Below are positions 7,643 to 25,927 of a stretch of 64,000 bases of DNA, piece after piece. The stretch's first letter is position 1; each line of letters begins with the position of its first letter. The stretch comes from Clostridiaceae bacterium (GTDB taxonomy: Bacteria > Bacillota > Clostridia > Acetivibrionales > DUMB01). Location of the stretch: the NCBI GenBank assembly GCA_012840535.1, contig DULF01000049.1, positions 2,846 through 66,845 of the forward strand, given 5' to 3'. A program made the position numbers and the translations under genes. Under the pieces are notes generated by a model. The model was not told the origin of the DNA. It saw only the letters and a list, made by a program, of their open reading frames with translations, and ran no database searches.

Positions 7643-7664
7643 AAATTGTTTGAAAGGAATTTTA

Positions 7665-8762: not shown

Positions 8763-8763
8763 T

Positions 8764-10149
8764 ATGAAAAATGCACGTGTGATTCGAATTCTTGCTTTCT
8801 GTGCCGCTTTTGCAATGCTGATGCTGGCAGCGGCATGCAGCAACACCGGGAAATCGTCAGGAGATTTATCAGCCAAAGATCCCGGTTCTGCAAACGGCTC
8901 CGCATCCGGTTCTGAGTCAGGCTCAGCATCCGGTTCTGCTTCAGGGCTCAACAGCAAAGCTAAACTGAAGGTCTGGTTTTCGTTGAATACAGCAGAAAAT
9001 GATGCCCTTCAAAAGATTGCAGACAAATTTAAAGCCGAAACCGGAGTATCCGTGGAGGTCCTTGACAGCAACTTTTTCACCATCAGGCAAAAATTTCCGG
9101 TGGCTGCACAATCTTCCGAAAAGCCTGATATCGTCTATATACAGTCAGCCGATCTTGGAGTCCTTGCTTCCAACGGATACCTGCAGCCGATTGACTGGCT
9201 GGACGATGAAACCAGGTCCCGTTTTTACGATATTGGTTTTGAAGCAATGAAGTATAACGGAGTATACTATGGTGTCGGTTACTCAATTGATGCATATGGA
9301 ATTGTTTACAACAAAGCCCTTATATCAGAAATTCCGGAAACCTGGTCGGAATATTTCGCCAAAGCTAGGGAACTGACACAGAGAAACGGCGGCGAAATCA
9401 CTCTTTATGGAACCCTGGTTGCTCCCAACAATTACTGGTTTATATATCCTCTTATAAGAAATGAAGGCGGTTATTATTTTGGAAGGAATGCAGACGGATC
9501 ATACAATCCGGATGACATCGGCATAGATACCGAGGGTACCAAAGTTGCAATCAACAAGCTTTTGCAGCTTAAGGCAGAAGGCCTGACTACGCAATCCTAT
9601 ACAGAAACTGACAGCAATGTCAGCGCGCGATTTGCAAATGGAAAGGTTGCCATGTTTATATATGGCCTGTGGGATGCTGCAATTTACAGGAGCAAAGGGA
9701 TTGATTACAGAATTGCACCGCTTCCCAGGAATGATGACGGCAGCGAATCAAAACCCCTTGCAACCGTACAGGGCTTTGTACTGAACAGGTTTTCTGACTG
9801 GCCGGCTGAAGCAAAAGCATTCCTGCAGTACATCATGAAAGATGAGAACCAGCAGATTCTCTATGAAGCAGGCAATGGAGGAGAAGCCAAAACAGGCTAC
9901 CGCAATACATGCAACAAGGCGGTTGCGGCAAGTTCCTACGTACAGGAAAGTGAAGTTTTGAAATCGCTTCTCTCCGTAAGCCTGACCGGCGAAGTTTTCC
10001 CCAACAATCCCGAAGCTGTCGTCATTTGGAATTACAGCACTGAAGCTCTGAATGCCATATTCTTCAAGGGCGCGCCGGTAGATTCAAAACTAAAGGAATT
10101 TTCCGATGCTGTTAAAGCTGACATTGCCGCCATGAGGGGCAAAAATTAA
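8764..10149 (+). CDS. ABC transporter substrate-binding lipoprotein, maltose/maltodextrin (MalE-like, family 1)
   Basis: Lipobox LAAAC, a Gly/Ser linker, and typical family-1 binding-protein length and motifs (KLKVWFS, PDIVYIQSADLG, YGLWDA). Confidence 0.9.
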   Translation: MKNARVIRILAFCAAFAMLMLAAACSNTGKSSGDLSAKDPGSANGSASGSESGSASGSASGLNSKAKLKVWFSLNTAENDALQKIADKFKAETGVSVEVLDSNFFTIRQKFPVAAQSSEKPDIVYIQSADLGVLASNGYLQPIDWLDDETRSRFYDIGFEAMKYNGVYYGVGYSIDAYGIVYNKALISEIPETWSEYFAKARELTQRNGGEITLYGTLVAPNNYWFIYPLIRNEGGYYFGRNADGSYNPDDIGIDTEGTKVAINKLLQLKAEGLTTQSYTETDSNVSARFANGKVAMFIYGLWDAAIYRSKGIDYRIAPLPRNDDGSESKPLATVQGFVLNRFSDWPAEAKAFLQYIMKDENQQILYEAGNGGEAKTGYRNTCNKAVAASSYVQESEVLKSLLSVSLTGEVFPNNPEAVVIWNYSTEALNAIFFKGAPVDSKLKEFSDAVKADIAAMRGKN

Positions 10150-10178
10150 AAAAAAATTAAACTCCCGGAGGCTGCTGA

Positions 10179-11102
10179 ATGAAAAAATTATTGTGGAAAA
10201 TAAATGATTCTGTCTGCGGATGGATTTTCATGATTCCATTCCTGTTGCTTTTTAGTATTTTTTACGGCTACCCCGTAATTCATAATATCTGGTTGTCATT
10301 AACGGATTACAGCGGTATGAAAATGATGAATTACGGCTTTGTTGGCCTTAAAAACTATGAAACCATTTTTAACGAGGGATTAAGCGGATTTACAGGAATG
10401 CTTTTATGGACTTTCATCTATGCAGGAAGTGTCGTTATCTCGTCGCTGGTGCTCGGGACTTTCATTGCCGTCTTGCTTGACAAGGCGGGGCTGGTTATCG
10501 CCAAAATATACCGCGGAATATTCATTCTGCCGTGGGTTATTCCTGCATTCATTACAATTCTCATGTGGCGCGGATTTTTAAATACAAGCGACGGCCTGAT
10601 CAATTCCATTCTCGGAAAGTTCGGAATTCCGCCGATCCCATGGCTTACTGATCCGTTGATGGCAAAAGTCAGCACGGTCATTGTCATGACATGGTTTTCA
10701 TTTCCATATTTCATCATTGTCGCCCAGGGAATTCTGAAATCAATACCCGGAACGCTTTACGAGGCAGCCGAAATTGACGGGGCGTCAACGCGGCAGTCAT
10801 TTGTGAAAATTACACTACCGCTGGTAGTTCGTGCGATGCTTCCCACATTAATTATGTCATTCATCATGCAGTTCAATCAGTTCGGTATTTATCTTCTTAC
10901 ACGCGGCGAACCTGCCGCTGAGAAACTTGGTGATCCCGGAGCCACGGACCTTCTGATCACTTATGTCTTTAACACTGCATTCAGGACCATGCGTTACGAC
11001 CTTGCTGCTGCATATTCCGTCATCATTTTCTTCTTTGTCGGCGCATTCTCACTTATTGCAATGAAGGTCGGAAGGTCCATCGGAAGCGAGGAGTCCAAAT
11101 AA
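10179..11102 (+). CDS. ABC sugar transporter permease (MalF-like)
   Basis: Six TM segments. EAA loop YEAAEIDGASTRQSFVKITLPL. Confidence 0.9.
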   Translation: MKKLLWKINDSVCGWIFMIPFLLLFSIFYGYPVIHNIWLSLTDYSGMKMMNYGFVGLKNYETIFNEGLSGFTGMLLWTFIYAGSVVISSLVLGTFIAVLLDKAGLVIAKIYRGIFILPWVIPAFITILMWRGFLNTSDGLINSILGKFGIPPIPWLTDPLMAKVSTVIVMTWFSFPYFIIVAQGILKSIPGTLYEAAEIDGASTRQSFVKITLPLVVRAMLPTLIMSFIMQFNQFGIYLLTRGEPAAEKLGDPGATDLLITYVFNTAFRTMRYDLAAAYSVIIFFFVGAFSLIAMKVGRSIGSEESK

Positions 11103-11133
11103 GTATGATAGCTTTAGCGGATGGAGTGAAATT

Positions 11134-11970
11134 ATGATTACCAGGCAAAAAAAACGAAAACAGATTGGATTGAATATTTTTCTGTCGCTTATCTCGATCA
11201 CGATCCTTTTGCCTTTTGTTGCAATTGTTCTGATTTCTTTCGGCAAAGATGTCATTGTAGTAAGCGGTAGCTTATTGCCATCAGAATTTACTCTTGAACA
11301 TTATGTGTCCGTATTTACGGAATATAGATTTATTAATTGGTTCTGGAATTCAATATATCTTTCGCTTGGAACAATGGTCATAAGCCTCCTGATCACTACA
11401 ATCACAGTCTTTGCATTGTCAAGGGTGCGGTTTCACGGAAGGGACATTATGTTTTCGGCAATTTTGCTGGTTCAGGTGTTTCCGCTCACATTGTCGATGG
11501 TTTCAATCTTCAAGATTTTCAGTTCTTTCGGGCTCCTTGATAAAATCGAGGGATTGATGCTGTCGAATGCCGTTATGGCATCGGCAGGCATGGTGTTGCT
11601 CGCCAAAGGGTACTTTGACACAATACCTTCTGAACTTGACGAGGCTGCAAGAATTGATGGCGCAGGATTATTGACTATTTTTGTCAAAATCATTTTGCCG
11701 CTTGTCAAACCTATACTTGCCATAGTTGCACTGCAGAGCTTTGTGCTGGCGTATAACGAGTACGTTATTGCAAGCGTTGTAATGACAGGCGGATTCAAGA
11801 GCATGCCGCTGGCGGTCGGACTCCAGAGCATGATCGAAGGCCAATACGGCACAAATTGGTCCAGATATTGTGCAGCAGCAATTATGGGTTCATTACCGAT
11901 AATTGTCCTTTTTTATTCGATGCAGCGCTACTTTATCGGCGGGCTGTCAGAAGGAGGAGTTAAGCTATGA
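11134..11970 (+). CDS. ABC sugar transporter permease (MalG-like)
   Basis: EAA loop LDEAARIDGAGLLTIFVKIILPL; multiple TM helices. Confidence 0.9.
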   Translation: MITRQKKRKQIGLNIFLSLISITILLPFVAIVLISFGKDVIVVSGSLLPSEFTLEHYVSVFTEYRFINWFWNSIYLSLGTMVISLLITTITVFALSRVRFHGRDIMFSAILLVQVFPLTLSMVSIFKIFSSFGLLDKIEGLMLSNAVMASAGMVLLAKGYFDTIPSELDEAARIDGAGLLTIFVKIILPLVKPILAIVALQSFVLAYNEYVIASVVMTGGFKSMPLAVGLQSMIEGQYGTNWSRYCAAAIMGSLPIIVLFYSMQRYFIGGLSEGGVKL

Positions 11971-13775
11971 GTAAATGCGGTATGAATTTTGCAGCAGTAC
12001 AGCATACACCGGACACAGTTTATGCTTATCCGGTTAATGAAAACACGCTCCGTCTGAGAATTAAAACCGCCAAAGGCGATTGTACCAGGGTATGCGTGAG
12101 GTATAAAAACACATACGATCATGTCAGTTCACCTGCAAGGCAGGAGATGCAGCTTATTTCCACGGATAAATATAATGATTATTATGAAGCGGAAATCACC
12201 GAGCCCGGGAAAAGATTCAAATATTATTTCGAACTGACAGATCAGACCGGAACGGTTTGGAACTACTCAAATTACGGGTTCACGCCATATAATAAAAACT
12301 ACAATAAATTCTTTATCTATCCTTATCTGTTTGAAGAAGACCTTCCAGGTGCTCCTGATTGGGCAAGGGAGGGGTTAATCTACCAGATTTTCATCGACCG
12401 GTTCAATAACGGCGATCCGTCAAACGATCCGGAAAATTGTGTGGAATGGGATGCCCTTCCCAACCGTAAATCCTTTTACGGCGGGGACTTTAAAGGAATT
12501 ATGGATAAACTGGACTATATTGCTTCACTTGGTGCGACGATCCTGTATCTCAGTCCGATTTTTCTTTCTGAAACAAACCATAAATATGACGTAATCGATT
12601 ATTATAAAATCGATCCTGTATTCGGCACGGTGGAAGAAGCGCGCGAACTTGTAAAGAAAGCGCATTCCCTTGGAATACGCGTGGTTCTTGATGCAGTTTT
12701 CAACCACTGCAGCAATAAAAACCAATTGTTTCTTGATGTCGTTTCAAAAGGCACTAAATCCAAATATTTCGACTGGTTTTCTATCCGCGGAGAAAAAGTA
12801 GAAACTGATCCCCTTAACTATGACACGTTTGCAGGAATGGTACCTGAAATGCCACGCCTGAATACATCCAACCCCCATGTCCAGGAATACTGCATTGATG
12901 TGGCGGCCTATTGGACAAAGGAGTTGGACATAGACGGCTGGAGGCTGGATGCCTCAGATGAGGTTTCTCATACTTTATGGAGAAAATTCCGCAGCAGGCT
13001 TCGCGAAATAAAGCGGGATATCTTTATCCTGGGTGAAGTGTGGTACCGGGCAACCCCATGGCTTTTGGGCGATGAATTTGACAGCGTGACGAATTACATG
13101 TTCAGAAATGCCATTCTGGCGATGGCAACGGATCCTCAGCGCAGCAATATGGAATTTTGGGACGAAGTATGCGCAAATGAAATGAACTACAGGTCAACAA
13201 CAATTCCCTTCCTGGTGAACCTGGTAGGCAGCCATGACGTCAAAAGAATTTTAACCGCACTTGACGGCAACAGGTCCATGCTCTTTCCTGTATTCGGAGT
13301 CTTAATCACTTATATTGGGATTCCGCTGATCTATTATGGAGATGAGATTGGCATGGAAGGCGGCGAGGATCCGGATAACCGCAGGACAATGAAGTGGGAT
13401 GCACAAAACCAGGATACAAAGCTGCTTGAGTTTATCCGCAGCCTCGGAATGCTACGAAAAAACACAAATTCATTAAAAAATGGCTCTGTTAAGTTATTAA
13501 GGAATCTTCCTGACAGAGTTATCGGGTTTGAAAGGATAATTTCACCTTCCGTGCCCTTTGGTGATATTTGTTCTGCAGGACCTGAAGATCGCATCATCCT
13601 GGCAAATTTCGGCAGCAAAAACATTAGCGCAGATTTAAATCTCGATGTTGACGGCATGGGGGCTGAAAAACGGCTTTACTCATGCCTGGATAACCGCTCA
13701 TTTGCTGTCGGCGATAATGGATGTTCCAGAATTGAGTTGGACGGATACGATTTTATGGTACTCAAAGTCAGGTAA
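11967..13775 (+). CDS. GH13 alpha-amylase-family enzyme, neopullulanase/cyclomaltodextrinase/maltogenic amylase type (cytosolic)
   Basis: GH13 regions DAVFNHC, GWRLDASDEV, GEVW and LVGSHD, plus an N-terminal domain typical of neopullulanases. No signal peptide. ATGA overlap with the permease stop. Confidence 0.9.
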   Translation: MSKCGMNFAAVQHTPDTVYAYPVNENTLRLRIKTAKGDCTRVCVRYKNTYDHVSSPARQEMQLISTDKYNDYYEAEITEPGKRFKYYFELTDQTGTVWNYSNYGFTPYNKNYNKFFIYPYLFEEDLPGAPDWAREGLIYQIFIDRFNNGDPSNDPENCVEWDALPNRKSFYGGDFKGIMDKLDYIASLGATILYLSPIFLSETNHKYDVIDYYKIDPVFGTVEEARELVKKAHSLGIRVVLDAVFNHCSNKNQLFLDVVSKGTKSKYFDWFSIRGEKVETDPLNYDTFAGMVPEMPRLNTSNPHVQEYCIDVAAYWTKELDIDGWRLDASDEVSHTLWRKFRSRLREIKRDIFILGEVWYRATPWLLGDEFDSVTNYMFRNAILAMATDPQRSNMEFWDEVCANEMNYRSTTIPFLVNLVGSHDVKRILTALDGNRSMLFPVFGVLITYIGIPLIYYGDEIGMEGGEDPDNRRTMKWDAQNQDTKLLEFIRSLGMLRKNTNSLKNGSVKLLRNLPDRVIGFERIISPSVPFGDICSAGPEDRIILANFGSKNISADLNLDVDGMGAEKRLYSCLDNRSFAVGDNGCSRIELDGYDFMVLKVR

Positions 13776-13850
13776 ATTACTTTTAGGCTCAAACTTGATC
13801 CAGGGCCTGAAAGGTTTACAAATATAATTTATTTAAAGGAGGAGATCGGT

Positions 13851-14792
13851 ATGAAAAATTTGCTCAGGATACTTCCGATAGTTGCGGCTCTTCTGTTTAT
13901 CAGCATTACACCTGTTTGTGCTGCGGAGGGTGACGAAGTTCCATTGGAATCCCCGGTAATCTATGGCGATTTCAACAATTGGGCTATTGAAGGTGAAGAT
14001 GCAAAACCCCTGGCAGAGACGGAACCCGGAAGCGGTATTTTTAAAGCTTCATACCACTTTGATGCTTATACCGGGACAGGCGAAGGATACTATGTTTTTG
14101 TATGCATCACCAAGAAAGATTACGGTCAATACGGATGGGGCGCCGGTGAGCAGTACACCTTGTCCGGCGAACCTGCGGCCATGGGTTCTGCTTCATTTTT
14201 CAAGCCGGAGGTCAGTGGGTTATATGAATTTACCTATGACTCAAAAACCCATGTAACGACAATTCTGCCTCCTGAAGTGTTCTTTGAGACGCCTGTCCTT
14301 TATGGCGACTTCAACAATTGGGCTATTGAAGGCGAAGACGCAATACTCCTGACAGAGACCGGCGATGGAACCGGAATATACCAGGCTATTGTTCCATTCG
14401 AGGCATATACAGGGGAAGGAGATGGATACACAGCTATTGTTTGTCTTTCAAAAAAGAACTATGGCCAGTACGGCTGGGGTGCAGGAACACAATATACCCT
14501 TTCCGGTGAAGCTGCCGGCTTCGGATCCAAATCAAGCTTTAAGCCAACAGTCTCCGGGAATTACCTTGTATCCTACGATTCCTCGACAAATACGACAACG
14601 ATTACGCTGATACAGGAGGAAACTCCCGCTGAAACAGACGCAGAAACTCCTGATGCAGCAAATACTGGGGCCGATACGGCAGCAGATACCAAATCACCTG
14701 ATACATCAGACTCAGGAGTAATGATTTACGTCGCCGGTGTTGCACTCAGTGCAGCGGCAATTGCCATGAATACAAGAAAATTAAAAAAATAA
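13851..14792 (+). CDS. Secreted surface protein with two tandem putative glucan-binding domains and a C-terminal sorting-signal-like anchor
   Basis: Signal peptide ending VCA/AEG. Two ~113-aa repeats beginning P(V)xYGDFNNWAIEGEDA. C-terminus is SPDTSDSG, then hydrophobic VMIYVAGVALSAAAIAM, then RKLKK. Confidence 0.8.
   Translation: MKNLLRILPIVAALLFISITPVCAAEGDEVPLESPVIYGDFNNWAIEGEDAKPLAETEPGSGIFKASYHFDAYTGTGEGYYVFVCITKKDYGQYGWGAGEQYTLSGEPAAMGSASFFKPEVSGLYEFTYDSKTHVTTILPPEVFFETPVLYGDFNNWAIEGEDAILLTETGDGTGIYQAIVPFEAYTGEGDGYTAIVCLSKKNYGQYGWGAGTQYTLSGEAAGFGSKSSFKPTVSGNYLVSYDSSTNTTTITLIQEETPAETDAETPDAANTGADTAADTKSPDTSDSGVMIYVAGVALSAAAIAMNTRKLKK
13948..14612 (+). repeat. Intragenic tandem duplication (2 copies, period 339 bp)
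   Basis: TATGGCGAT/CTTCAACAATTGGGCTATTGAAGG occurs at 13962 and 14301. The two units stay alignable at DNA and protein level through ...TYDS(K/S)T..TTI. Confidence 0.85.
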
Positions 14793-14806
14793 AATGACTT
14801 GATATG

Positions 14807-14856
14807 CAAAGGTTACATCATCGATTTTCAAATGATATTTGATGGTGTAACCTTTG
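14807..14856 (+). terminator. Long hairpin after the surface-protein gene (possible terminator)
   Basis: 16-bp stem CAAAGGTTACATCATC / GATGGTGTAACCTTTG (one G-U), 18-nt loop. It is followed by an A-run rather than a T-run, so intrinsic-terminator status is uncertain. Confidence 0.3.
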
Positions 14857-14914
14857 TATAAAAAAACATTTAGATTTATTTTGCCATGATTGATTTGGTG
14901 AAGGAGTAAACGCA

Positions 14915-15709
14915 GTGGTTATCGATGCGCATGCCCATTTTGGGTCAATTCTGGATTTCTATATGCCGGAAAACATGCTGATCCAGTCAATGGACAAATA
15001 TGGCATAGATTGTGCTGTCGTTTCAAATATACAGGGAATTGAATTTGATCATGACAAACATCCGCTGGCAAAAGACAGGCTGCGGAATCAGATAGATATC
15101 AATTACGCTGCAATTGAATTTTCCCGGAAATTCCCCGGGAGAATTTATCCGCTTGTCTGGGTAATGCCGCATACAGGTGGAGTTTCGGAGGAATTCTGCC
15201 GTTTTGTTTTGGAAAACCGTTCAGGTATTTACGGACTGAAATTGCATCCCTATCTGAATCAGGCGCCAATCGATTCAGCACTTGTCGAACCATATATCAG
15301 GCTTGCCGCCGAATATGATCTGCCTGTCGTCGTACATACCGCTTCCACGGACGAATCCTCGCCCAGGAGAGTCTTTAACATGGCGGTTAAATACCCATGT
15401 GTAAAATTTGTTATGGTTCATCTAGGGTTGTATACAGACCATGAAGAATCCATTGACCTGATTGCGAAGCAGCCGAACTTGTACGGAGATACAACCTGGG
15501 TTGCGCCTGAAAGCACACTGAAATTGATTGAGAAAGCCGGACCCGACCGGGTCATGTTCGGATCGGATGCACCTATATCGGGACCGGATGGTTATTCAAA
15601 TCCCATTTATCAGACCTATCTTGAAAAGTGGAAAACGTTATTCAACACCCATGATTATGAGAAACTCATGTCAGGAAATGCAGTCAAATTCTTTGGATTG
15701 CCTGTGTAA
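14915..15709 (+). CDS. Metal-dependent amidohydrolase-family TIM-barrel hydrolase
   Basis: N-terminal VIDAHAHFG metal-binding motif, plus later VVHTAS and VMVHLG and a FGSDAP aspartate motif. GAAGGAG RBS before GTG 14915. Confidence 0.8.
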   Translation: MVIDAHAHFGSILDFYMPENMLIQSMDKYGIDCAVVSNIQGIEFDHDKHPLAKDRLRNQIDINYAAIEFSRKFPGRIYPLVWVMPHTGGVSEEFCRFVLENRSGIYGLKLHPYLNQAPIDSALVEPYIRLAAEYDLPVVVHTASTDESSPRRVFNMAVKYPCVKFVMVHLGLYTDHEESIDLIAKQPNLYGDTTWVAPESTLKLIEKAGPDRVMFGSDAPISGPDGYSNPIYQTYLEKWKTLFNTHDYEKLMSGNAVKFFGLPV

Positions 15710-15837
15710 TTGTTAAACATATAGTTAGGAAGATAATTATTTGATATTAAGAATCGTGTAAAATGCACTCAAGAAAAGATATATAAAATTAAAGATCACT
15801 AAATAAGATTAATGGAATTATAAAGCAATGAATATAG

Positions 15838-16083
15838 TTAAGCTGTAAATATATAGAAAAAGCAGTTTTTGTGAATGCCATTAAGTTCCATGGCGTACAG
15901 ATGGTGTACTAATTGTTCTCTACCGTATGTGCGCTTCAATAAGCCTTTTTTCTCAAGCTTTCCGAGTCCTCTTCATATGGTGGCTTCACCAATGAAGATT
16001 TTTTTACTAAGTTCAGTTACAGTAACGGACTTTTTTGCTTTAAGCAAATTCATAATACCCTGCTGGCGTTCAATGGCAAACAA
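15838..16083 (-). pseudogene. DeoR-family regulator fragment (HTH only) with an in-frame TGA
   Basis: My own minus-strand translation from TTG 16083 (RBS AGGAG) gives FAIERQQGIMNLLKAKKSVTVTELSKKIFIGEATI-stop(15973-15975)-RGLGKLEKKGLLKRTYG. This matches the DeoR HTH pattern ...TIRRDLxxLExxGLLxRxxGG. No sugar-phosphate-binding domain follows. Confidence 0.6.
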
Positions 16084-16099
16084 TATAACGCTCCTTTCC

Positions 16100-16561
16100 A
16101 CGATGGACCGAGAGATAGTATGACCGAATGGCTACCAAGGAAGAGATGAAACACTAAGGGTAGATCTTTGCTATCTAGAATCAGTCCCATCTGGAAAACC
16201 GGGTTTGAACGTTTTTCCTTTTTCTTAAAACTAGGATATATAATTCGTGAATATACAAGTAGACGAAAGATAGCGTTCAAATTAAAGCCAATATTGAGTA
16301 TGTTTTCGTTACGTTGGAAAAAGCATGAGTGCCTAATCCATGGTAAATCTTTTCAAGGAAAACATAACCAAGGTTTTTTAATCCTATTTCCTTAATCTTT
16401 GCAAATGGATCGAGGAGAAGGCGGATGGGTTTAAAAGTACGGGAATTTTCTTCAGTGTATTGGCATGCAATTTCCCGAAAGAGAGCGATTTTATCGGGAT
16501 ATTGCTTCAGTTCATCGAGGCAGCCAAGGATTTCAACATGCTTTTGCTTTAACCTTGCCAT
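16100..16561 (-). mobile_element. IS1634-family (IS4-like) transposase remnant, frameshifted and internally deleted
   Basis: ORFs 16277..16561 and 16050..16280 are in different frames. Segments GYVFLEKIYHGLG, LLVYSRIIYPSFKK and RSNPVFQMGLILDSKDLPLVF match conserved N-terminal blocks of IS1634-type transposases. Only about 170 of about 550 aa remain, and no terminal repeats are recognisable. Confidence 0.65.
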
Positions 16562-16965
16562 TTTCTCTGAAAGATTAAGTTAGAGTCAGTAGAATCCGGC
16601 TGTTTTTGCAGCTATTTTTTTCACAAGTATGGGCAATACCTCCATACGTTGTGTGTTTATCCTATTATACTAAAATATACGCTTCCTGATAATACATAAA
16701 TAATACATTATTCTTGACATAAAAATAAATGCTATCAGCGGTCTATTAAGTCTTTAACAATATTTATTTTATGCTATTGCTGCAAAAGAAACGAGAGGGT
16801 TACAGTCATTTAAATAATCTTGTTACTGATATTATTGATATCTGATGAATTTTACTGTTAAATCAATATTTTTCTATGTGTACTCAATGTATTCCATTTT
16901 TCAAAAATTTATGTAAAGTTATAATTGACTTATACTACAAAGCTTTTAAAGAAAGGGGAATATAT

Positions 16966-19323
16966 ATGCCAGAAAATTTTGAAAAGAATTACCATATTAG
17001 TAATAAGTTCGGTCTTTCTATAAACTTTATGCCTGAAAAAGGACAGTATGATTTATTGTTTAAGGGGCGCAAATGGCTGGGAAATGGAATAATAAGCGTT
17101 TTTAAAAACGGTAGATGGTATAGGAGCCAGACGTCATACAATCTAGGTATTGGCTTTGAGGATGGATATTCTGTAAAGGATAAGGATGAGGAGCTTGGAA
17201 TAACTGAAATCAGGCAAGGCACAGAAGAGGATGTAATAGGTTCTTTTGAGTATATTGACTGCAAATGGGAATTTTCTGATAAAAGCCTTGAGTTTATTAC
17301 AAGTTTCCGTGTTTATAAAGAAAAACCTCATGTCGTCTTTGTTGAAAGATTCCCTAAGGGCTTCAAAAATTACGCCAATGGAAATTGGACACAGCCATCT
17401 ATGGTATTTCCGCAATTTTCACTCCCATCAGGAGGAAGTGAAGATATAAGGGATGATCTGTATTCCTGGACCAGCGGCGGCATGTTCAATCATAGATTCG
17501 GCTACGGCAATGCAGGTGCAATTAGCGGAGCAGTCGATATATTGGTGCTTGCCGACAAGGACAATAATGCCATGATACTCTCCCCCTTTGCCAATTATCT
17601 TGCAGCTACGCAACAATGCGTACATCTCGGAGGCAAGCCCTTCCAGTTCACCTATGCGATCAACTGCGGCATACAGGGTCTGGCAAGTGAAATACCCGAA
17701 GGGTATGAGCATATGCATATCGTTACGGCTTCTGAAGGCATAAACAATACTTTCCGAATGTGGGGCGATGCTCTTCTTTCAAAAAGCGGGAAAAAGAGAC
17801 CTTCAAAATATGAAGATGATTCGTTAAAGTACATAGCTTACCTCGACGATTATGGTGCATATTATTGGTCAAAAAAATTCACCGACAGCGAATATGACAA
17901 TTATGAGGATATAATAATTGCCGTGGAAGAGGAGTTGAAAAATAACGGAATCCGGACTGGAGTATACCATGTATTGGATTCCGATCAATTGAAATACAAG
18001 GAAGGCTTGTATGAACCTCTTGATTCTCTTTTTCCAAGAGGTGTGAAATGGCTGAGTGAAAAGATCGGAAGACCCATACAGGCATACATGTGCTGGCTTG
18101 CCTCTAAAGGCCCGTATAGAGAAAAATTTCCCTATTTCGATTGCGGAGCAGATGGGGATGTTCCTTTGGCTAGCATGGGCGACGTGTTTTATAGCGAGGA
18201 TTATTGGGAGTATACTGCAGAAAAGCTTGCAAGCTGGGGCTGCATTAGCCTTATGATTGATTATATCAATATTTATGAGGGCGACAAGGTTATGATGTCT
18301 GGCATAAATAATATGGATATATATTTCAAAAACATGGCAAAAGCGCTTCATAAAAAAGGTATATCAATTCATTACTGCATGCAGATGCCAAGGCATGTCA
18401 TGGAATCTGTTGAGAATCCGGCAATGCTGTCGCTGCAAGGCACATGGGACCATCATGTATTGCGTAACAAGTTCAATATGGAGAATTCAGACAGTTACCA
18501 GTGGAAACACCTCATTTTTACCAATGCATTTTACGGCAGCCTCGGTATATGGCCGTCGAGGGACAATATTCAGACGGTTGCTGATGCAAATGCCTATGAA
18601 GATGTCCTTGTAGCAAATCTTTCAGGAGGTCAGCTGCAGCTGGGACATAAGGTTGGAGAATGCGATTTCAGTTTGCTGAAAAAGACATACCGAGAATGTG
18701 ACGGACTTGTCCTGAAAGCCGACAGGCCTATTACACCAATTGACAGGTGCTATATTGAAGGTGGAATGGTAGGTTACACAGAATCCAACATTTCCGGACA
18801 TAAATGGTACTATGTTCTTAGTTTGCCGAGTTCAGGTTATCTGTCGAGTTTCTCAGTAGCTGATTTAGGTGGTAAGGGTAAGTATCTGGTTTACAATTAT
18901 GAAATGAAATGTGCTTCGGTTAAAAGCGAGGATTGTCAGATTCCTCTCCTCAGAGATGCAAAACATGAATACTTTGTTGTTGCTCCTGTTTTTGACAACG
19001 GGATGGCTGTGATTGGAGATACTGAAAAGTTCGTCACAATGGCTGATATGCGAGTGGCTTCAGTCGAAACTTGCTCCAAAATGCTTAAGGTTGGAGTAAT
19101 ATCAGGCTTGGGTGATAATCCCATAATTACCGGCTATTCGCCCACAAGGCCGAGTAAAATTGTATGCAATGGGGAGGCGATGGAAGAAACGACCAGCCTC
19201 GGAAGGTTAAGAATATCACAGTGCGGATGGTTTTGGGACTCGATAACTAAATTGTGGCATGTAAAGATGGATTTCTCCGACTTGAGTGAAATAGTAACAA
19301 GGGAATTCATTGTAGCCTATTAA
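16966..19323 (+). CDS. Large cytosolic protein of unknown family, possibly a highly divergent GH36/raffinose-synthase-like (clan GH-D) glycosidase
   Basis: 785 aa from ATG 16966 (RBS AAAGGGGA); no signal peptide. YLDDYGAYYW, VYHVLDSDQ and SLMIDYIN are positioned like the GWCTWDAFY, IDDGWQ and K-x-D motifs of GH36-type enzymes (weak, by eye). It sits next to a sugar two-component/ABC locus. Confidence 0.7.
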   Translation: MPENFEKNYHISNKFGLSINFMPEKGQYDLLFKGRKWLGNGIISVFKNGRWYRSQTSYNLGIGFEDGYSVKDKDEELGITEIRQGTEEDVIGSFEYIDCKWEFSDKSLEFITSFRVYKEKPHVVFVERFPKGFKNYANGNWTQPSMVFPQFSLPSGGSEDIRDDLYSWTSGGMFNHRFGYGNAGAISGAVDILVLADKDNNAMILSPFANYLAATQQCVHLGGKPFQFTYAINCGIQGLASEIPEGYEHMHIVTASEGINNTFRMWGDALLSKSGKKRPSKYEDDSLKYIAYLDDYGAYYWSKKFTDSEYDNYEDIIIAVEEELKNNGIRTGVYHVLDSDQLKYKEGLYEPLDSLFPRGVKWLSEKIGRPIQAYMCWLASKGPYREKFPYFDCGADGDVPLASMGDVFYSEDYWEYTAEKLASWGCISLMIDYINIYEGDKVMMSGINNMDIYFKNMAKALHKKGISIHYCMQMPRHVMESVENPAMLSLQGTWDHHVLRNKFNMENSDSYQWKHLIFTNAFYGSLGIWPSRDNIQTVADANAYEDVLVANLSGGQLQLGHKVGECDFSLLKKTYRECDGLVLKADRPITPIDRCYIEGGMVGYTESNISGHKWYYVLSLPSSGYLSSFSVADLGGKGKYLVYNYEMKCASVKSEDCQIPLLRDAKHEYFVVAPVFDNGMAVIGDTEKFVTMADMRVASVETCSKMLKVGVISGLGDNPIITGYSPTRPSKIVCNGEAMEETTSLGRLRISQCGWFWDSITKLWHVKMDFSDLSEIVTREFIVAY

Positions 19324-19414: not shown

Positions 19415-19531
19415 TATTCTGATTGCAGTGTGATGGTGAGTTTTTGGTTTTGTTAGTTGAAAATCGTACCCTGGTAGACTATAATAATTTTGTGCAGGCT
19501 TAAAGGGTTGATTCGTCAGAGGTGTAATGCC

Positions 19532-21379
19532 ATGAAAAAAAAAGCACATTCAATAAAAAAGGTGTTCGCTGGAAGTATAGCAAGAAAACTGTTTACCTTG
19601 ATCGTTTTTGGAGTTCTATTGCCTTTTTTTATTTTGAATGGCTTTTTTTATAGAAGCATTATTAGTAATTCCATGTCAAATTACATAAATATGAGCTTGA
19701 ATACCATGACGCTGCTTTCAAGCACTGTCAAAGGTTATTTTGACTCAATTGACGATATGATAATGGACCTTTACAGGGATGATGAGTTTTTCGTCAAGTT
19801 GAGAAATGGATTTCAAGACTATGTTGATAAAAGGGATTTTGAAGATAAGATTATAAGGATTCTTAGAAAAAATAAAGAATTTAATAGTATTGAGTTCTAT
19901 GTTTCTAAAAACCATTCACTGTATAAATTTAGTAAAAACTTTCATATTTCTTCTGTTACAATCACTAACAATTTGACATATCAAGAGATTGAAAAAACAA
20001 ATAGGATACCATTTATCAAAAACACAATGCAAAAGGAATACGCCTATATTACGCCGAGCCACGAAATGACAGTTGATGAAAAAGGAAAAAAAGTAAAAGG
20101 GTTCTCATTTAACAGGCAGATTAAAAATTTGCCTGGCGGCAACATCCTGGGGATAATATCTATAAATATAAAATACGATTATTTGAGTTCCATTTGCAAC
20201 TCCGCAATGATAAATCCAAATGAATCCATTTTTATCTGCAGCGTATCAGGAGATATTACCTTTGGAAGTAAAAATGACGCTAAAATAATAAGCAACTTAA
20301 AGTCAGCAATCGATAAAATAAGCTACAGTGAAAATACGGAAGAAAAGGGGATAATAAAACCAGACGGAGAAAATTGGATTGCTTTTTACAATAAAATCCC
20401 ATTTTCTGAGATTCTCCTTATCAAATTGATTCCTTATGATTCCATATATGCTGAAATAACGAAGATAGCTTTCAGGAATATAGGAATAAGTATGATTTTA
20501 CTGTCATTTGTTGTGATAATTGTTATTTTAGTATCTTTGTCTATCACAAGGCCGCTGTCAAAATTAAGGGAAGCCATGAATCATATTAAATCGGGGAATT
20601 ACAACGTTTCAGTACGATTGAACGGAGCAGATGAACTAAGTGCTGCCGTGGAGACTTTTAACCTGATGGCTGAAAAAATCAACAAGCTTATCAATGAGCA
20701 TTTTAAAGCACAGCTTTCCGAAAAGACAGCGCAACTTGAAGCGCTTCAGTCAAAAATCAATCCACATTTCCTGAGTAATACGCTACAAACGATAAAGTAT
20801 CTGGCAGTCAGACGCAATGCCTTTGAGGTGAGTGAAATAGTAGACGCACTGGCTCCGATATTGCGTTACAGTATTTATAGCTTTGAAGGTGCTGTAAAAT
20901 TATCGGACGAGATCAGAAATGTTGAAAGATATTTATTAATACAAAAGTACAGATATTTGGAAAAACTCAATTATAAGGTCTATGTGGACCCAGAGGTTGA
21001 GGATTTTCAATTGCCGCGGGTTACACTTCAACCCCTGGTAGAGAATTCGGTAATCCATGGAATTGAAGAAGGAACGGGTAAAGGCTGCATTGAAGTTAAT
21101 TGCCTGAAAAAGGATGGAAATGTAATTATCAGCATTGTTGACGATGGCAGAGGCTTTTCTGAAGATAAAAGGTTAAGTATTCTTGAAGATATAAAAAAAT
21201 ATAACATGAGAAACATGGAGGAAAGTTCAAGTATAGGAATAAGAAATGTCTTTTACAGACTTAAACTTTTCTTTGGCGATAAGATTTTATTTTTTATTGA
21301 CAGCGAGCCATATAAGAAGACAGAAGTAAAGCTGATCATATTAATGGATGAACCGTCAGCAGCAATTGAAATGAAATGA
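19532..21379 (+). CDS. Sensor histidine kinase, YesM/LytS-type (two TM helices, extracellular sensor, HAMP, His_kinase, HATPase)
   Basis: HAMP region RPLSKLREAMNHIKSGNY, phosphoacceptor block QSKINPHFLSNTLQTI, ATPase blocks LQPLVENSVIHG and DDGRGF. ATG 19532 is preferred (AGAGGTG RBS). Confidence 0.9.
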   Translation: MKKKAHSIKKVFAGSIARKLFTLIVFGVLLPFFILNGFFYRSIISNSMSNYINMSLNTMTLLSSTVKGYFDSIDDMIMDLYRDDEFFVKLRNGFQDYVDKRDFEDKIIRILRKNKEFNSIEFYVSKNHSLYKFSKNFHISSVTITNNLTYQEIEKTNRIPFIKNTMQKEYAYITPSHEMTVDEKGKKVKGFSFNRQIKNLPGGNILGIISINIKYDYLSSICNSAMINPNESIFICSVSGDITFGSKNDAKIISNLKSAIDKISYSENTEEKGIIKPDGENWIAFYNKIPFSEILLIKLIPYDSIYAEITKIAFRNIGISMILLSFVVIIVILVSLSITRPLSKLREAMNHIKSGNYNVSVRLNGADELSAAVETFNLMAEKINKLINEHFKAQLSEKTAQLEALQSKINPHFLSNTLQTIKYLAVRRNAFEVSEIVDALAPILRYSIYSFEGAVKLSDEIRNVERYLLIQKYRYLEKLNYKVYVDPEVEDFQLPRVTLQPLVENSVIHGIEEGTGKGCIEVNCLKKDGNVIISIVDDGRGFSEDKRLSILEDIKKYNMRNMEESSSIGIRNVFYRLKLFFGDKILFFIDSEPYKKTEVKLIILMDEPSAAIEMK

Positions 21380-22659
21380 ATAAAAAGGGTGATGCTTCAT
21401 TGAAAGCCTTGATAATTGATGATGAGGCCGGTGCCCGTGAATATTTAAAGTTCATAGGAAAATGGGAACGTTTAGGTATAAATATAGTACTTGAGGCTGA
21501 AAATGGCGAAGATGGTCTTAGAAAAATATCTGAGGAAAATCCTGAGTTGATTGTAACAGATATGCGCATGCCGGTCATGGATGGCATAAAACTGCTTGAG
21601 ATGATTGAGCAAAGAGCGCTTAGTGCAAAAATACTTGTGATTAGCGGTTATAGTGATTTCACCTATACTCGAAGGGCAATAAAATCAAAAGTAATCGATT
21701 ATTTATTAAAGCCTGTCAATCCGGAGGAATTTAATAGCTCGCTTAAGAAGGCTGTTGATGAAATCAGATCGGGGTTAAATGTCGACGGCGCTGGTACCGT
21801 GTCGCTGGAAAATCTACAAGCGGACCTCGATGGCAGACCTACAAGAGGAAATGAAGGATTATATAGGCTAATGGAGTTGGTGGAATATGACCAGGAAAGA
21901 GAAGATTTCATTTTATTGGTAACAAAGGTATTAAATTTTGAAGATATAAAGCGTGACTGCTTTAACAAATCGCCTGGGCTATTTTGCTATTTCATTGAAA
22001 CAAAACTAAATGGTATTGTATTCAAGAGCGGGAAATATTTATCTACCAGGGATATTGACTGTGTAAATGAATTTGTGACGATCTTGACATTTGATAAAAG
22101 CAAAGATCAGAGGATATTCTGCGATATTTACGAGTATTGTAAGCTTATGCTGAATGAGATGGAAAATCACAGTATTAAATGCAATATAGGGTTGAGTAAT
22201 AGAGCTAGCAACCGTACTGACTTTATTACCGCCTTTGAACAAGCGAAAACAGCTCTTTCGGGAGCAAATGCCATTAAAGACGAAAAAATTTTATATTATA
22301 ATGATAACATATTAGAGAATAAAACGTACAGTAATTTAGTAATTAACATCATGAATTTTATTCTTGAGAATTATTATATGAAACTGTCTCTTGATTATAT
22401 TTCTAAGATGTTTTTTGTTAGTAGGGAACATCTTTGCAGAATTTTCAAAGAGGAAACTGGCGAGAATCTGTTCAGATTCATAAACAGAGTGAGGATGGAA
22501 AAGGCAAGAGAGCTTTTAGAGGACGAAAGCCTGAAAATATGTAATATTGCCAGGATGGTCGGGTTAGAAGATAATAACTATTTTACCAAGGTGTTTAAAA
22601 AACACTTTGGTATTCCACCGCAGGAATATAGAAATGTTAAACGCAAATTTAAAGGCTGA
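21376..22659 (+). CDS. Response regulator with AraC-type HTH output (YesN-like)
   Basis: Receiver domain KALIIDDE...VTDMRMPVMDGIKLL...LLKP. C-terminal HTH_AraC ...ICNIARMVGLEDNNYFTKVFKKHFGIPPQEYR. ATGA overlap with the kinase stop. Confidence 0.9.
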   Translation: MNKKGDASLKALIIDDEAGAREYLKFIGKWERLGINIVLEAENGEDGLRKISEENPELIVTDMRMPVMDGIKLLEMIEQRALSAKILVISGYSDFTYTRRAIKSKVIDYLLKPVNPEEFNSSLKKAVDEIRSGLNVDGAGTVSLENLQADLDGRPTRGNEGLYRLMELVEYDQEREDFILLVTKVLNFEDIKRDCFNKSPGLFCYFIETKLNGIVFKSGKYLSTRDIDCVNEFVTILTFDKSKDQRIFCDIYEYCKLMLNEMENHSIKCNIGLSNRASNRTDFITAFEQAKTALSGANAIKDEKILYYNDNILENKTYSNLVINIMNFILENYYMKLSLDYISKMFFVSREHLCRIFKEETGENLFRFINRVRMEKARELLEDESLKICNIARMVGLEDNNYFTKVFKKHFGIPPQEYRNVKRKFKG

Positions 22660-22800
22660 TTCGGCCGTTTTCGCTATGATACTAATCAATATTTTACGAT
22701 AACACTGCAATCAAATCCATTTAATTCTTCTATAAAAAAATTATAAAATATTAGATAAAGAGCTTACATGCTCTAAATATTAAAGCTCAGGGGTGATTTT

Positions 22801-24120
22801 AGTGTTTTCAAAAAAGACATTATGGTTTCTTGTAACGATTTTATTAATTTCTTTTATTCTTCCTGCTTGTTCGTCGTCAGATGCAAACAAGACATCGGAT
22901 ACTTCCGGTACGTCACATCAGGCCGAACAGACAAAATCCCAAACAGAACAAAAAAAAGAAGGAGAAAGCAATGCCGAGCCGGTTATTTTAAAATTTCTTC
23001 ATTATCAGATTGAATGGGCAGACAGAATAGATAATCTTTCGGATGAATTTAATAAGGATGTACCCAATGTAACGATTGAGAACGAAGCAAGCTCGGACTT
23101 TTATACTATTCTGAGGACGAGGATAGCCAGCAATGATATTCCTGACATACTTGGGCTTCCTACCTATTATGCCTTGAAGGATTACAAGGAGTATCTTTTA
23201 GACCTTACCGGCGAACCTTATTGGGATGAAGTGATGGATTATGCGAAGCTGTCTGTTACAGTAGATGGGAAATTATTCGGAATCCCATTGGATATTGAGA
23301 CCTGGGGCATCATATATGACAAGGATACCTTCACGAAAGCTGGTATAAATGAGCTTCCCAGGACGCTGACACAATTAAGGGATACCTGTGAAAAAATAAA
23401 AAAGTTGGGGATTTTACCTTTTGGCGAAGGATATAAGGAAGACTGGATCATAGGACACATATTCAGAATGATCATAGGATGCGATCCGACTCCTGCCAAA
23501 ACAATGGAAGATGTAATGGCAGGAAAAATAAAGCTTAAGGATCTTGAGGCTTGTAAAAAGCTTTTTGACTTCTTTGACATAGTTAAAGAAAATTGTCCTG
23601 AAAAAGCTCTGGAAATTGATTATGCTGCGCAGTGCTCTAGTCTTGGATTAAAGAAGGCGGCGATGATAACACAGGGTGACTGGGCAGAAGATATGATAAA
23701 AATGGTGAACCCTGATATTAATATCGGTATGATGGGTGTTCCCATCAGCGAGGATCCAAGTGAATGCAGACTGTATTCAGATGTTTCCTGGTGTATGGCG
23801 ATTTCCAAAAGCAGCAAGCATGTGGATGAAGCAAAGGAGCTTTTTAGCTGGATAGTATCAAAGCCGAATGGGAAGAAATGGCTGGAAACGGTTGGAGAAT
23901 TCTCAACCCGATTAAGGGCAATAATCCGAATTTTGGAGTGCTTACTCAGGACGCGTTAAAATTCATCAATGAAGGAAACATATATCCATGGGGATATCAT
24001 TTTTTCTCCTCCACCTTTGAGCCAACAATCAATGGGGCAATGCAGGAGTATTTTATGGGTAAGCTCAACAGGGACGAATGCCTTGACAAAATAAACGAAG
24101 AATTTGTAAGTGGTAACTAA
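22801..24120 (+). pseudogene. ABC sugar substrate-binding lipoprotein interrupted by a 1-nt frameshift
   Basis: Lipobox ILPAC. ORF 22793..23959 and ORF 23878..24120 are consecutive parts of one family-1 binding protein. The reading frame changes near 23900-23910 (..WLETVGEF / NPIKGNNPNFGVLTQDA..). Confidence 0.8.
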
Positions 24121-24215
24121 GTATTCTTACTATTTTTTATAGTTCAAATCTTTATGAATACTTTAAATGGGCGGAAAGCTTCGGCTTTCCGCCAACAGTT
24201 AAAAGAGGGATTGCA

Positions 24216-25097
24216 ATGACAAAGAAAAGGCGTAAAATTATATTAGAGTTTATAATATTTACCTCTCCGGTAATTCTGCTTTTTTTGCTTACATATATAT
24301 ATCCGTTTATCAGTGGATTTATATATATGTTTACCGATTGGAATGGAATAAGCTCAAAAATTACTTTTGTGGGACTTGAAAACTTTTCTAATATTTTTAG
24401 CGAAAGCTCAGGCTTTGTGAATTCGGTTTCTTTCACAATCAGGTTGACTGCTGTTGTCGTACCGGTTTCGAATTTATTGGCGCTAGCATTTGCATTAATT
24501 CTCGATATGGATTTAAAATTAAGAAATTTCATCAGGACGCTTTTATTCATGCCCAATGTAATTACTTTAATAATTATAGGCTTCATGTGGCAGTTCGTTT
24601 TTACAAATACATTTGAGTCCTTATACAAATATACCGGCTTGGATTTCTTCAATTGGAGCTGGCTGGGTGATGAAAGGCTTGCATTTTGGTCTGTAGCGGT
24701 GGTATGTATATGGCAGGTAGTAGGTTTCTACATGGTCATTTACATTTCAGGTCTTCAGACAGTCAATCAGGAAGTATTAGAGGCATCCATCATCGACGGA
24801 GCTGGCAGGTGGCAAAGATTTTATCATATAATCCTACCTTTTATTGTGCCTGCCATTACCATTGCGTTATTTTTATCCATTTCAAACACTTTAAGGACTT
24901 TCGATATTCCTTTCGTACTCACCAAGGGGGGACCGGGGTTTGCTACAAGGACAGTAGTCTTCAATATTTATGAAGAAGCATTCAAAAAAAATAATTACGG
25001 TCTGGGTTCGGCAAAAGCTTTTATACTATTTGTTGCAACTGCTCTGATAACCCTTATCCAGGTATTGGTGCTGAAAAGAAAAGAGGTGGAAAACTAA
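24216..25097 (+). CDS. ABC sugar transporter permease (LacF/UgpA-like)
   Basis: EAA loop LEASIIDGAGRWQRFYHIILPF; six TM helices. Confidence 0.9.
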   Translation: MTKKRRKIILEFIIFTSPVILLFLLTYIYPFISGFIYMFTDWNGISSKITFVGLENFSNIFSESSGFVNSVSFTIRLTAVVVPVSNLLALAFALILDMDLKLRNFIRTLLFMPNVITLIIIGFMWQFVFTNTFESLYKYTGLDFFNWSWLGDERLAFWSVAVVCIWQVVGFYMVIYISGLQTVNQEVLEASIIDGAGRWQRFYHIILPFIVPAITIALFLSISNTLRTFDIPFVLTKGGPGFATRTVVFNIYEEAFKKNNYGLGSAKAFILFVATALITLIQVLVLKRKEVEN

Positions 25098-25927
25098 TGA
25101 ACAGAAGAAGCAGTCTCATTTTTCTCGAAGTTCTAATAATCTTTGCTACCATTTTCTTTTTATATCCGATTATTATCGGATTTCTCAATACGTTCAAGCC
25201 TTTTAGGGATATTATGGCGGATGCTATTTCATTGCCAAAAGGACTTTATCTAACTAACTACGTGACTGTATGGGATCAGATGCAGTATTTTAAGAAATTA
25301 TTAAATTCATTAGTTATATGTCTGGTCTCTATTGTTGCTATTGTTGTATTGAGCGCTTTATGCGCTTACAAACTTTCGAGGGATGAAAAAAGAATACCTG
25401 CAAGCAGGATTATTTTTATCGCTTTTGTTTCATCCATGGTTATACCTTTCCATGCAATCATGATACCAACAATACAGGAAATGAAGTTTCTTAATCTTAT
25501 TAATACTCTTGAAGGAGTAATAATTTTTGATATAGGTGGATGTTGCCCTTTGGCTGTATTCCTCTACCATGGTTTTATAAAAACAGTTCCGCTTGAGCTT
25601 GAAGAGTGTGCAAGGATAGATGGTTGCAATACACTAAGGGTTTTTGTACAAATCGTATTTCCCTTGCTAAGCCCTATAACCGTTATGGTTATTGTGCTGA
25701 ATACTATTAACATATGGAATGATTTTCTGTTTCCCTACCTGGTATTGTCGAGTAAAAGTAAAATGACGCTTCCTCTGGCACTTTTCCAATTTGTAGGAAG
25801 ATATATGAAGGAATGGGATAAAATGCTTGCAGGTTCATTTCTGTGTATGGCTCCAATAGTAATATTCTACTTCATTCTTCAACGTTATATCATTAAAGGA
25901 ATTGTAATGGGATCCATTAAAGGTTAG
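25097..25927 (+). CDS. ABC sugar transporter permease (LacG/UgpE-like)
   Basis: EAA loop LEECARIDGCNTLRVFVQIVFPL. Start overlaps the preceding stop. Confidence 0.9.
   Translation: MNRRSSLIFLEVLIIFATIFFLYPIIIGFLNTFKPFRDIMADAISLPKGLYLTNYVTVWDQMQYFKKLLNSLVICLVSIVAIVVLSALCAYKLSRDEKRIPASRIIFIAFVSSMVIPFHAIMIPTIQEMKFLNLINTLEGVIIFDIGGCCPLAVFLYHGFIKTVPLELEECARIDGCNTLRVFVQIVFPLLSPITVMVIVLNTINIWNDFLFPYLVLSSKSKMTLPLALFQFVGRYMKEWDKMLAGSFLCMAPIVIFYFILQRYIIKGIVMGSIKG

Follow-up and report, generated by a model that had tools for sequence, protein, structure and literature searches.

The protein encoded at positions 16966–19323 of a 64,000-nucleotide stretch of contig DULF01000049.1 from a Clostridiaceae bacterium (this stretch is called the window below) is, as shown by its predicted structure and by profile alignment, a three-domain enzyme resembling and remotely homologous to glycoside hydrolase family 36 (GH36), with the plant alkaline α-galactosidase/raffinose-synthase clade as the closest group. 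We consider it likely that the protein is a retaining α-glycosidase of an unclassified GH36-related (clan GH-D-like) family, the substrate of which is probably not a classical galactoside.

The open reading frame (ORF) is unbroken and encodes 785 residues. A mechanical ORF list offers an alternative upstream ATG at 16876 which would lengthen it. We prefer 16966 as the start because it is preceded by the ribosome-binding site AAGGGGA, because the deposited protein P0001 (‘hypothetical protein GXX14_03155’ from a Clostridiaceae metagenome-assembled genome, MAG; 785 residues) is identical from this position, and because the homologues begin there as well. An initial annotation, made from the DNA alone, had singled out four motifs in this frame. 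All four are found exactly as quoted: YLDDYGAYYW (residues 292–301), VYHVLDSDQ (333–341), SLMIDYIN (428–435) and HYCMQMP (469–475).

An AlphaFold2 model was built on a 36-sequence alignment and its secondary structure assigned by DSSP. The model has a mean predicted local distance difference test score (pLDDT) of 87.3 and a predicted template-modelling score (pTM) of 0.90. It consists of an N-terminal β-domain, a connecting helix (residues 259–274), a (β/α)8 barrel and a C-terminal β-sandwich region (Table 1); the ~80 residues at the C-terminal end have no counterpart in the ~720-residue members of the wider superfamily described below. In the model, the four motifs each lie at the C-terminal end of a barrel strand, namely β1, β2, β4 and β5, respectively. 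The strand ends of the barrel carry DD294-295, D338/D340, W377, D432, C471-M472, D495-H496-H497, D533 and H561.

Comparison of the model with the PDB (to April 2026) by Foldseek gave as the five best matches structures of AtAkaGal3, a GH36 alkaline α-galactosidase from Arabidopsis (7EXF and related entries; E 1.4e-27 to 8.5e-26, TM 0.59–0.67, ~760 aligned columns), and there was no closer structure than this group; 7EXF, the best match, has TM 0.61–0.66. These were followed by other GH36 enzymes (FpGalNase, AgaA, SpAga) and then by GH97 and GH31. The GH36 structures overall aligned over the full length with TM 0.5–0.67 which, together with the domain order of the model, assigns to the protein the three-domain architecture of GH36. 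A profile of 64 diverse superfamily members reached 7EXF also by sequence, with E=1.3e-8. The GH36/raffinose-synthase-like barrel between N- and C-terminal β-domains, suspected in the initial annotation, is thus supported by the model and by a Foldseek ranking led by AtAkaGal3. Neither a non-glycosidase match nor a model lacking a barrel with paired acids was obtained: the barrel is present, and the best matches are GH36 enzymes.

The same profile alignment places ‘YEQDW’ of the superfamily on ‘VKVD383’ of AtAkaGal3 and ‘iRvsgD’ on ‘R443-A-S-D-D447’. In AtAkaGal3, D383 and D447 act as nucleophile and acid/base, respectively, and replacement of either by alanine abolishes activity (PMC9912918). 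The corresponding residues of the window protein are D432 and D495, so that the paired acidic residues expected earlier do align with a known nucleophile and acid/base. Both are invariant in the subfamily of close homologues; in the superfamily D432 is conserved in 98% and D495 in 96%. Their spacing is 63 residues in the window protein versus 64 in AtAkaGal3. An independent though weak match (E 0.79) aligns D432 with the Asp of ‘KYD’ in the GH27-like structure 4NZJ. By alignment and conservation, D432 and D495 therefore provide the Asp at the end of β4 and the Asp after β6 that mark clan GH-D.

Such an enzyme would act on an α-linked glycoside by the double-displacement (retaining) mechanism of the clan. 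D432 would attack the anomeric carbon, giving a covalent glycosyl-enzyme intermediate, and D495 would be the general acid/base, first donating a proton to the leaving group and then activating water. We propose as substrate an imported α-linked glycoside, probably one with a sugar other than plain galactose at −1; a transglycosidase activity may exist beside that of a glycosidase. It is by analogy with the plant GH36 clade that we infer hydrolysis, retention and α-specificity; a cytosolic location is probable because the protein has no leader peptide.

Around the catalytic pair, the sugar pocket has been rebuilt. The −1 subsite of AtAkaGal3 holds galactose by D243, D244, W307, K381 and R443, of which D243, K381 and R443 bind O3/O4/O6 (PMC9912918). 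K381, the Lys of KxD, is replaced by Glu in the superfamily (92%), by Gln in the subfamily (94%) and by M430 in the window protein. R443, the Arg of RxxxD, is retained in the superfamily (93%) and replaced by Gln in the subfamily (97%), Q491 in the window protein. ‘DDGW’ becomes LDSWW in the superfamily, xDxDQ in the subfamily and L337-D338-S339-D340 in the window protein, where L337 is the equivalent of D243 and D340 that of the Trp. In place of the KxD, RxxxD and DDGW-type Asp pair of GH36 and GH27, the window protein thus has M430-I-D432, Q491-G-T-W-D495 and L337-D338-S-D340; alignment and residue conservation confirm the earlier remark that the usual Trp and DDGW residues are replaced. In the subfamily, moreover, two nearly invariant His residues immediately follow the acid/base (D495-H496-H497), His561 takes the place of an Asp of the superfamily (95%), and ‘LGH’ that of the superfamily's ‘GxGD’; the latter change and the added HH are at least 97% conserved. 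Since the catalytic pair is kept and the galactose-holding residues are replaced, the mechanism class would be the same and the −1 sugar a different one, probably not that of an ordinary galactoside.

None of this is visible to standard family searches, in agreement with the initial annotation, which had noted no canonical family signature. A Pfam search with the window protein returned only Melibiase_2 (GH27) at residues 410–492, with E=0.04 and hence below cut-off; PF05691 and PF02065 gave no match even at E≤10, NCBIfam gave no match, and a sequence search of the PDB yielded nothing meaningful. With neither GH36 model reached above its gathering score, the homology to GH36 is remote and found at the profile level only. 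The protein had also been called an orphan, which applies to its annotation only. There are 97 clusters of close homologues in 5.8 billion proteins, almost all full length and with 45–57% identity, none of which has a Pfam domain or a name; Acidobacteriota MAGs are the source of nearly all of them. When the search was repeated with a profile from the wider alignment, the same subfamily was returned and nothing was added.

To determine the extent of the superfamily, 1.84 billion representatives were scored with a 36-member profile. At E≤1e-3 the superfamily comprises 3002 proteins (representative clusters), 542 of which also reach E≤1e-30. Members at 22–37% identity occur in Bacteroidota, Anaerolineae, Chthoniobacteraceae and Helarchaeota; those from Bacteroidota include the cultured Pedobacter heparinus, Arachidicoccus, Ginsengibacter and Microbacter. 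All named members are annotated as ‘hypothetical’ or ‘uncharacterized’, with the exception of one labelled solely ‘RICIN domain-containing protein’. Of 64 diverse members, none has an NCBIfam match, and seven touch the Pfam model Raffinose_syn weakly (best E 1.3e-5), in the segment to which the weak Melibiase_2 and 4NZJ matches of the window protein also point. Literature searches found no characterised member of the family. Fusions to SASA esterase or ricin lectin domains are seen among the distant superfamily members.

Close homologues were located at 22 loci in species-representative genomes, all but one of which are Acidobacteriota/Terriglobia MAGs. The window copy, its nearest homologue P0002 (57% identity) and P0007 form a small sister clade to the leader-bearing Acidobacteriota copies. 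Comparison of the N-termini revealed no leader peptide in any of the three, and the window enzyme is therefore probably cytosolic. Most Acidobacteriota copies carry a Sec or twin-arginine (TAT) leader. Among homologue N-termini (L001, L004, L014, L016, L025), several have a twin-arginine-type leader, e.g. MKSLTRRQFGKAVA...; on others the leader is of the Sec or lipoprotein type, so that the family is apparently exported by two routes. A recent transfer of the window gene from Acidobacteriota was considered and found no support, given the sister-clade placement and the G+C content, which is 41.7% for the gene, close to the window mean of 41.6%, and 58–64% for the homologue loci.

Of 25 loci, 11 have a TonB-dependent-type receptor gene (CarboxypepD_reg + OMP_b-brl_4), in most cases placed immediately upstream of the homologue; tandem paralogues of ~50% identity recur. 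Two paralogues (50–58% identical) are common per Acidobacteriota genome, either in tandem or flanking the receptor gene (L002 5506–10397; L003 1622–3976 and 8001–10553; L005; L008; L014; L029 6479–11343). In L014 a TPR protein lies between both copies, and in cluster P0094, annotated as TPR repeat protein, part of the enzyme is joined to TPR repeats. A periplasmic copy with a TonB-type receptor, or a cytosolic copy with an ATP-binding cassette (ABC) importer, is what would be predicted for an enzyme acting on an imported glycoside. P0002 is an example of the latter: the gene order is binding protein, permease, permease, ceramidase-like protein, enzyme, aminotransferase, sulfatase.

Other neighbours recur as well. 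A pyridoxal-phosphate (PLP) aminotransferase is found beside the homologue in five independent loci and a neutral-ceramidase-like protein in four. The trio of ceramidase_alk-like protein, enzyme and PLP aminotransferase (L026 3897–10659, L006 7736–13661, L018, L021), in some cases joined by a sulfatase or an amino-acid permease, occurs in ABC-importer and TonB-receptor contexts alike and is explained by no known pathway. Scattered neighbours are sulfatases, SDR, enolase-superfamily, GntR, GH38-like, GH39-like and heparinase II/III-like genes. As to the wider superfamily, one distant member (L030 475–20134) shares a long cluster, all on one strand, with GH2, GH28, two NPCBM-GH27 genes and GH106, and a SASA-fused one is flanked by GH5, GH43, sulfatase and GH115 genes. 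The L030 cluster also encodes two more large proteins (733 and 644 residues) without a Pfam domain, which may be further unannotated glycosidases.

Several points weigh against a retaining α-glycosidase with a new specificity. The window protein alone has no significant sequence match to any glycoside hydrolase family, the homology coming from the profile and the predicted structure. The conserved Lys and Arg which accompany the catalytic aspartates in GH27 and GH36 are absent, and the window copy has M430 even where 94% of its own subfamily have Gln. The recurrent neighbours (ceramidase-like amidase, PLP aminotransferase, amino-acid permease) are atypical for a plain glycosidase. Finally, the chemistry may have changed, for instance to transglycosylation or phosphorolysis.

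Among the alternatives, the protein could be a very divergent α-galactosidase which cleaves raffinose- or melibiose-type oligosaccharides imported by the ABC transporter encoded next to it in the window. Its nearest structural relatives in the Foldseek search are all α-galactosidases or galactosaminidases, the relatives of the adjacent binding protein include, after maltose-binding protein, RafE/MsmE/BlG16BP-type binders of α-glycosides, a GalT-like gene lies directly 3′ of the homologue in three Acidobacteriota loci, and the distant ‘GH36_dist’ proteins as well as GH_New2 (see below) all proved to be α-galactosidases. We nevertheless regard this as unlikely, since the binders of galactose O3/O4/O6 (D243, K381, R443) have become L337, M430 and Q491 and D340 stands in place of the DDGW Trp, while GH27, GH36 and GH_New2 all retain two Asp and one Lys for O4/O6; moreover, the enzyme gene is probably transcribed apart from the ABC locus. 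A transglycosylase or synthase in the manner of the raffinose/stachyose synthases, building an α-glycoside such as a compatible solute, appears very unlikely. The closest characterised clade does include these synthases, AtAkaGal3 itself has synthase activity (PMC9912918), the window copy is predicted to be cytosolic, and Raffinose_syn is the only recurrent weak Pfam match in the superfamily. However, most members have Sec/TAT leaders and are encoded behind TonB-dependent receptors or in degradative glycoside hydrolase clusters, and export and such a gene context fit catabolism rather than biosynthesis.

The fold may also have been kept and the chemistry exchanged, yielding a glycoside phosphorylase of the retaining type, a lyase or a binding protein without catalytic activity, in which the His/Arg cluster (D495-H496-H497, H561, R476, R532) would bind an anion or a metal. 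The subfamily-specific ‘LGH’ for ‘GxGD’ and the conserved HH after the acid/base Asp point in this direction, and the GalT-like neighbour could use a sugar-1-phosphate. Against this speak the invariance of the two catalytic aspartates in the subfamily and the export of most members to the periplasm, a compartment in which phosphorolysis would not be expected; moreover, we know of no clan GH-D phosphorylase. We consider this possibility very unlikely. A more specific proposal, made because the ceramidase-like and aminotransferase partners recur beside the enzyme in Acidobacteriota and beside P0002, is speculative and quite improbable in our view: the subfamily would be the glycosidase of an undescribed catabolic module for an α-glycosylated, N-acylated amino-glycoconjugate, and a new clan GH-D family with a −1 subsite for a charged or amino sugar. 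It would work together with the neutral-ceramidase-like amidase and the PLP aminotransferase. The compound could be a glycosphingolipid, a headgroup of the glycosyl inositol phosphoryl ceramide (GIPC) type or an α-glucosaminyl-inositol-type compound. A search for homologues of the ceramidase-like protein, the aminotransferase and the sulfatase in the window found none. A retaining α-glycosidase, probably with a pocket for a sugar other than plain galactose, is the reading that we retain.

Within the window, the gene is followed by a locus for a sensor kinase, a response regulator with receiver and AraC domains, a family-1 binding protein and two permeases (Table 1), in agreement with the initial annotation. 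There the enzyme had been described as heading this two-component/ABC locus. The position is correct; the linkage is the weaker part of that description. The enzyme gene has its own promoter-like site, then a hairpin and then a second promoter-like site, and it therefore looks monocistronic to judge from these sequence elements. Furthermore, a YesM/YesN-type sensor pair was found beside the homologue in none of the 29 loci examined (L001–L029). Neither co-transcription nor conserved linkage with the YesMN/ABC operon emerged, the importer beside P0002 is an unrelated one, and the link of the enzyme to this operon is positional only. The suggestion of a cytosolic oligosaccharide-processing enzyme served by ABC uptake is still plausible, since the window protein and P0002 are leaderless and P0002 is encoded in an ABC-importer operon. 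The hairpin (−37 kcal/mol, z = −3.6; no equally good fold among 200 shuffles) is probably a terminator or a regulatory element. Since the T-run behind the 19-bp inverted repeat is weak, the hairpin may have a regulatory function and not be a terminator of the classical kind. The closest solved relative of the binding protein is the maltose-binding protein 9XOR (E 2e-47), and on account of its solved relatives the adjacent ABC locus is plausibly an importer of α-linked oligosaccharides.

Table 1. Position and basis of the features described for the enzyme gene and its surroundings (coordinates of the window).
Feature	Position	Strand	Basis
Low-G+C gap (32.8%), 1.25 kb, without intact gene	15710–16965	n.a.	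DeoR-type helix-turn-helix (HTH) fragment with stop codon on minus strand
Promoter-like site TTTTCA-16-TATAAT, 10/12 matches	16898–16925	+	Consensus scan; pattern match only
Ribosome-binding site AAGGGGA	16953–16959	+	6 nt 5′ of ATG; direct sequence reading
Coding sequence, 785-residue GH36-like enzyme	16966–19323	+	Translation, database identity, model, Foldseek, profile
N-terminal β-domain, residues 1–257, ~17 strands	16966–17736	+	DSSP of model; GH36 structures align full length
(β/α)8 barrel, residues ~286–600, eight alternating strand/helix units	17821–18765	+	Model, conservation
Codon of D432, predicted nucleophile, end of β4 (strand 426–431)	18259–18261	+	Aligned with D383 of AtAkaGal3
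Codon of D495, predicted general acid/base, four residues past β6 (strand 487–491)	18448–18450	+	Aligned with D447 of AtAkaGal3
C-terminal β-sandwich region, residues 601–785, two β-modules	18766–19320	+	Model
Hairpin, perfect 19-bp stem, directly after stop codon	19359–19420	+	RNA fold and sequence reading
Promoter-like site TTGAAA-17-TATAAT, 11/12 matches, best of the region, before kinase gene	19457–19485	+	Consensus scan
YesM-type sensor kinase (dCache/HAMP/His_kinase/HATPase) and YesN-type regulator (receiver and AraC HTH)	19490–22659	+	Domain search
Family-1 sugar-binding protein and two permeases	22793–25927	+	Domain search, PDB relatives

An insertion sequence element upstream of the enzyme gene was considered and rejected: the gap there holds a DeoR-type HTH pseudogene fragment on the minus strand (HTH_DeoR, Pfam E 4e-10) and a second, unassignable ORF fragment, and no transposase signal. 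The gap resembles decayed regulator genes between the enzyme gene and an upstream GH13 locus. The latter (6791–15709, plus strand) is a separate sugar locus with a TrmB regulator, a URO-D/MtaA-like protein, a family-1 binding protein, two permeases, a GH13 amylase-type enzyme with N-terminal Ig domain, a 313-residue protein without family and an Amidohydro_2 protein. The ABC permease genes are directly followed by an uninterrupted MttB-family (trimethylamine methyltransferase-like) gene (26156–27595, plus strand), which should be a non-pyrrolysine member since it lacks an in-frame stop. Such a gene is an unusual companion of a sugar-type ABC system. Behind the MttB-family gene there is a truncated C-terminal GFO/IDH/MocA fragment (27734–28234). 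A CHASE2 protein is encoded at 33443–34798 (plus strand); its adenylate/guanylate cyclase match covers the first ~33 model positions only, and the domain may be truncated or split.

If our reading is correct, thousands of sequence clusters represent an unrecognised GH36-related glycoside hydrolase family with a different sugar pocket, spread over Acidobacteriota, Bacteroidota, Verrucomicrobiota, Chloroflexota, Firmicutes and Asgard archaea and covered neither by Pfam and NCBIfam nor by the PDB. Identifying the substrate would give names to numerous ‘hypothetical’ genes found in the polysaccharide utilisation loci of soil bacteria and add a specificity to clan GH-D; possibly, it would reveal a pathway joining a glycosidase, a ceramidase-like amidase and an aminotransferase. 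For the window alone the result is modest: the fold and the mechanism class are well supported, and the latter is a known one.

Among known systems, the GH36 plant clade of alkaline α-galactosidases, raffinose synthases and SIP proteins (PF05691; 7EXF) is the most similar. It has the same N-terminal β-domain, barrel and C-terminal β-sandwich, it is the best structural match and the only family reached by a sequence profile, and the Asp positions on β4 and after β6 align. Yet identity in the structural alignment is ~12–14%, KxD has become MxD in the window protein (QxD in the subfamily, ExD in the superfamily), RxxxD has become QxxxD (the superfamily keeps the Arg), DDGW has become LDSD (LDSWW in the superfamily), and a C-terminal β-module of ~80 residues has been added. 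Because sequence membership and the KxD/RxxxD/DDGW context are lacking, although architecture and Asp positions agree, we do not file the enzyme as GH36 and describe it as one that would work like a clan GH-D enzyme. GH27 (Melibiase_2; 4NZJ, rice 1UAS) shares the clan GH-D barrel and the catalytic Asp positions, and its weak matches (E 0.04 and 0.79, below significance) fall on the β4–β6 segment of the window protein. In contrast to the window protein, it has no large N-terminal β-domain and keeps DD, KxD and RxxxD. GH97 and GH31 (SusB, MalA, sucrase-isomaltase) have the same overall multi-domain α-glycosidase fold (Foldseek E 1e-14 to 1e-18), but their structural scores are below those of GH36 and there is no sequence-level signal. 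Their catalytic arrangements also differ, GH97 using Glu and Ca2+.

GH_New2 (B2K_10610 from Paenibacillus mucilaginosus; 29RM, 29SO) has been proposed as a clan GH-D family remote to GH27 and GH36. Its architecture is very similar, with a large N-terminal β-sandwich, connecting helix, TIM barrel and, C-terminally, a small sandwich, and it keeps D345, D346, K435 and D437, while Asn492/Thr472 replace the acid/base Asp of β6 (bioRxiv 10.64898/2026.05.19.726164). The superfamily described here is the opposite, with LDSWW, EQD and a conserved β6 Asp, and it counts ~3000 representative clusters versus 92 sequences. On this active-site signature, as described in the preprint, an identity of the two was rejected. 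The enzyme of the window and its relatives are a candidate new glycoside hydrolase family in or near clan GH-D.

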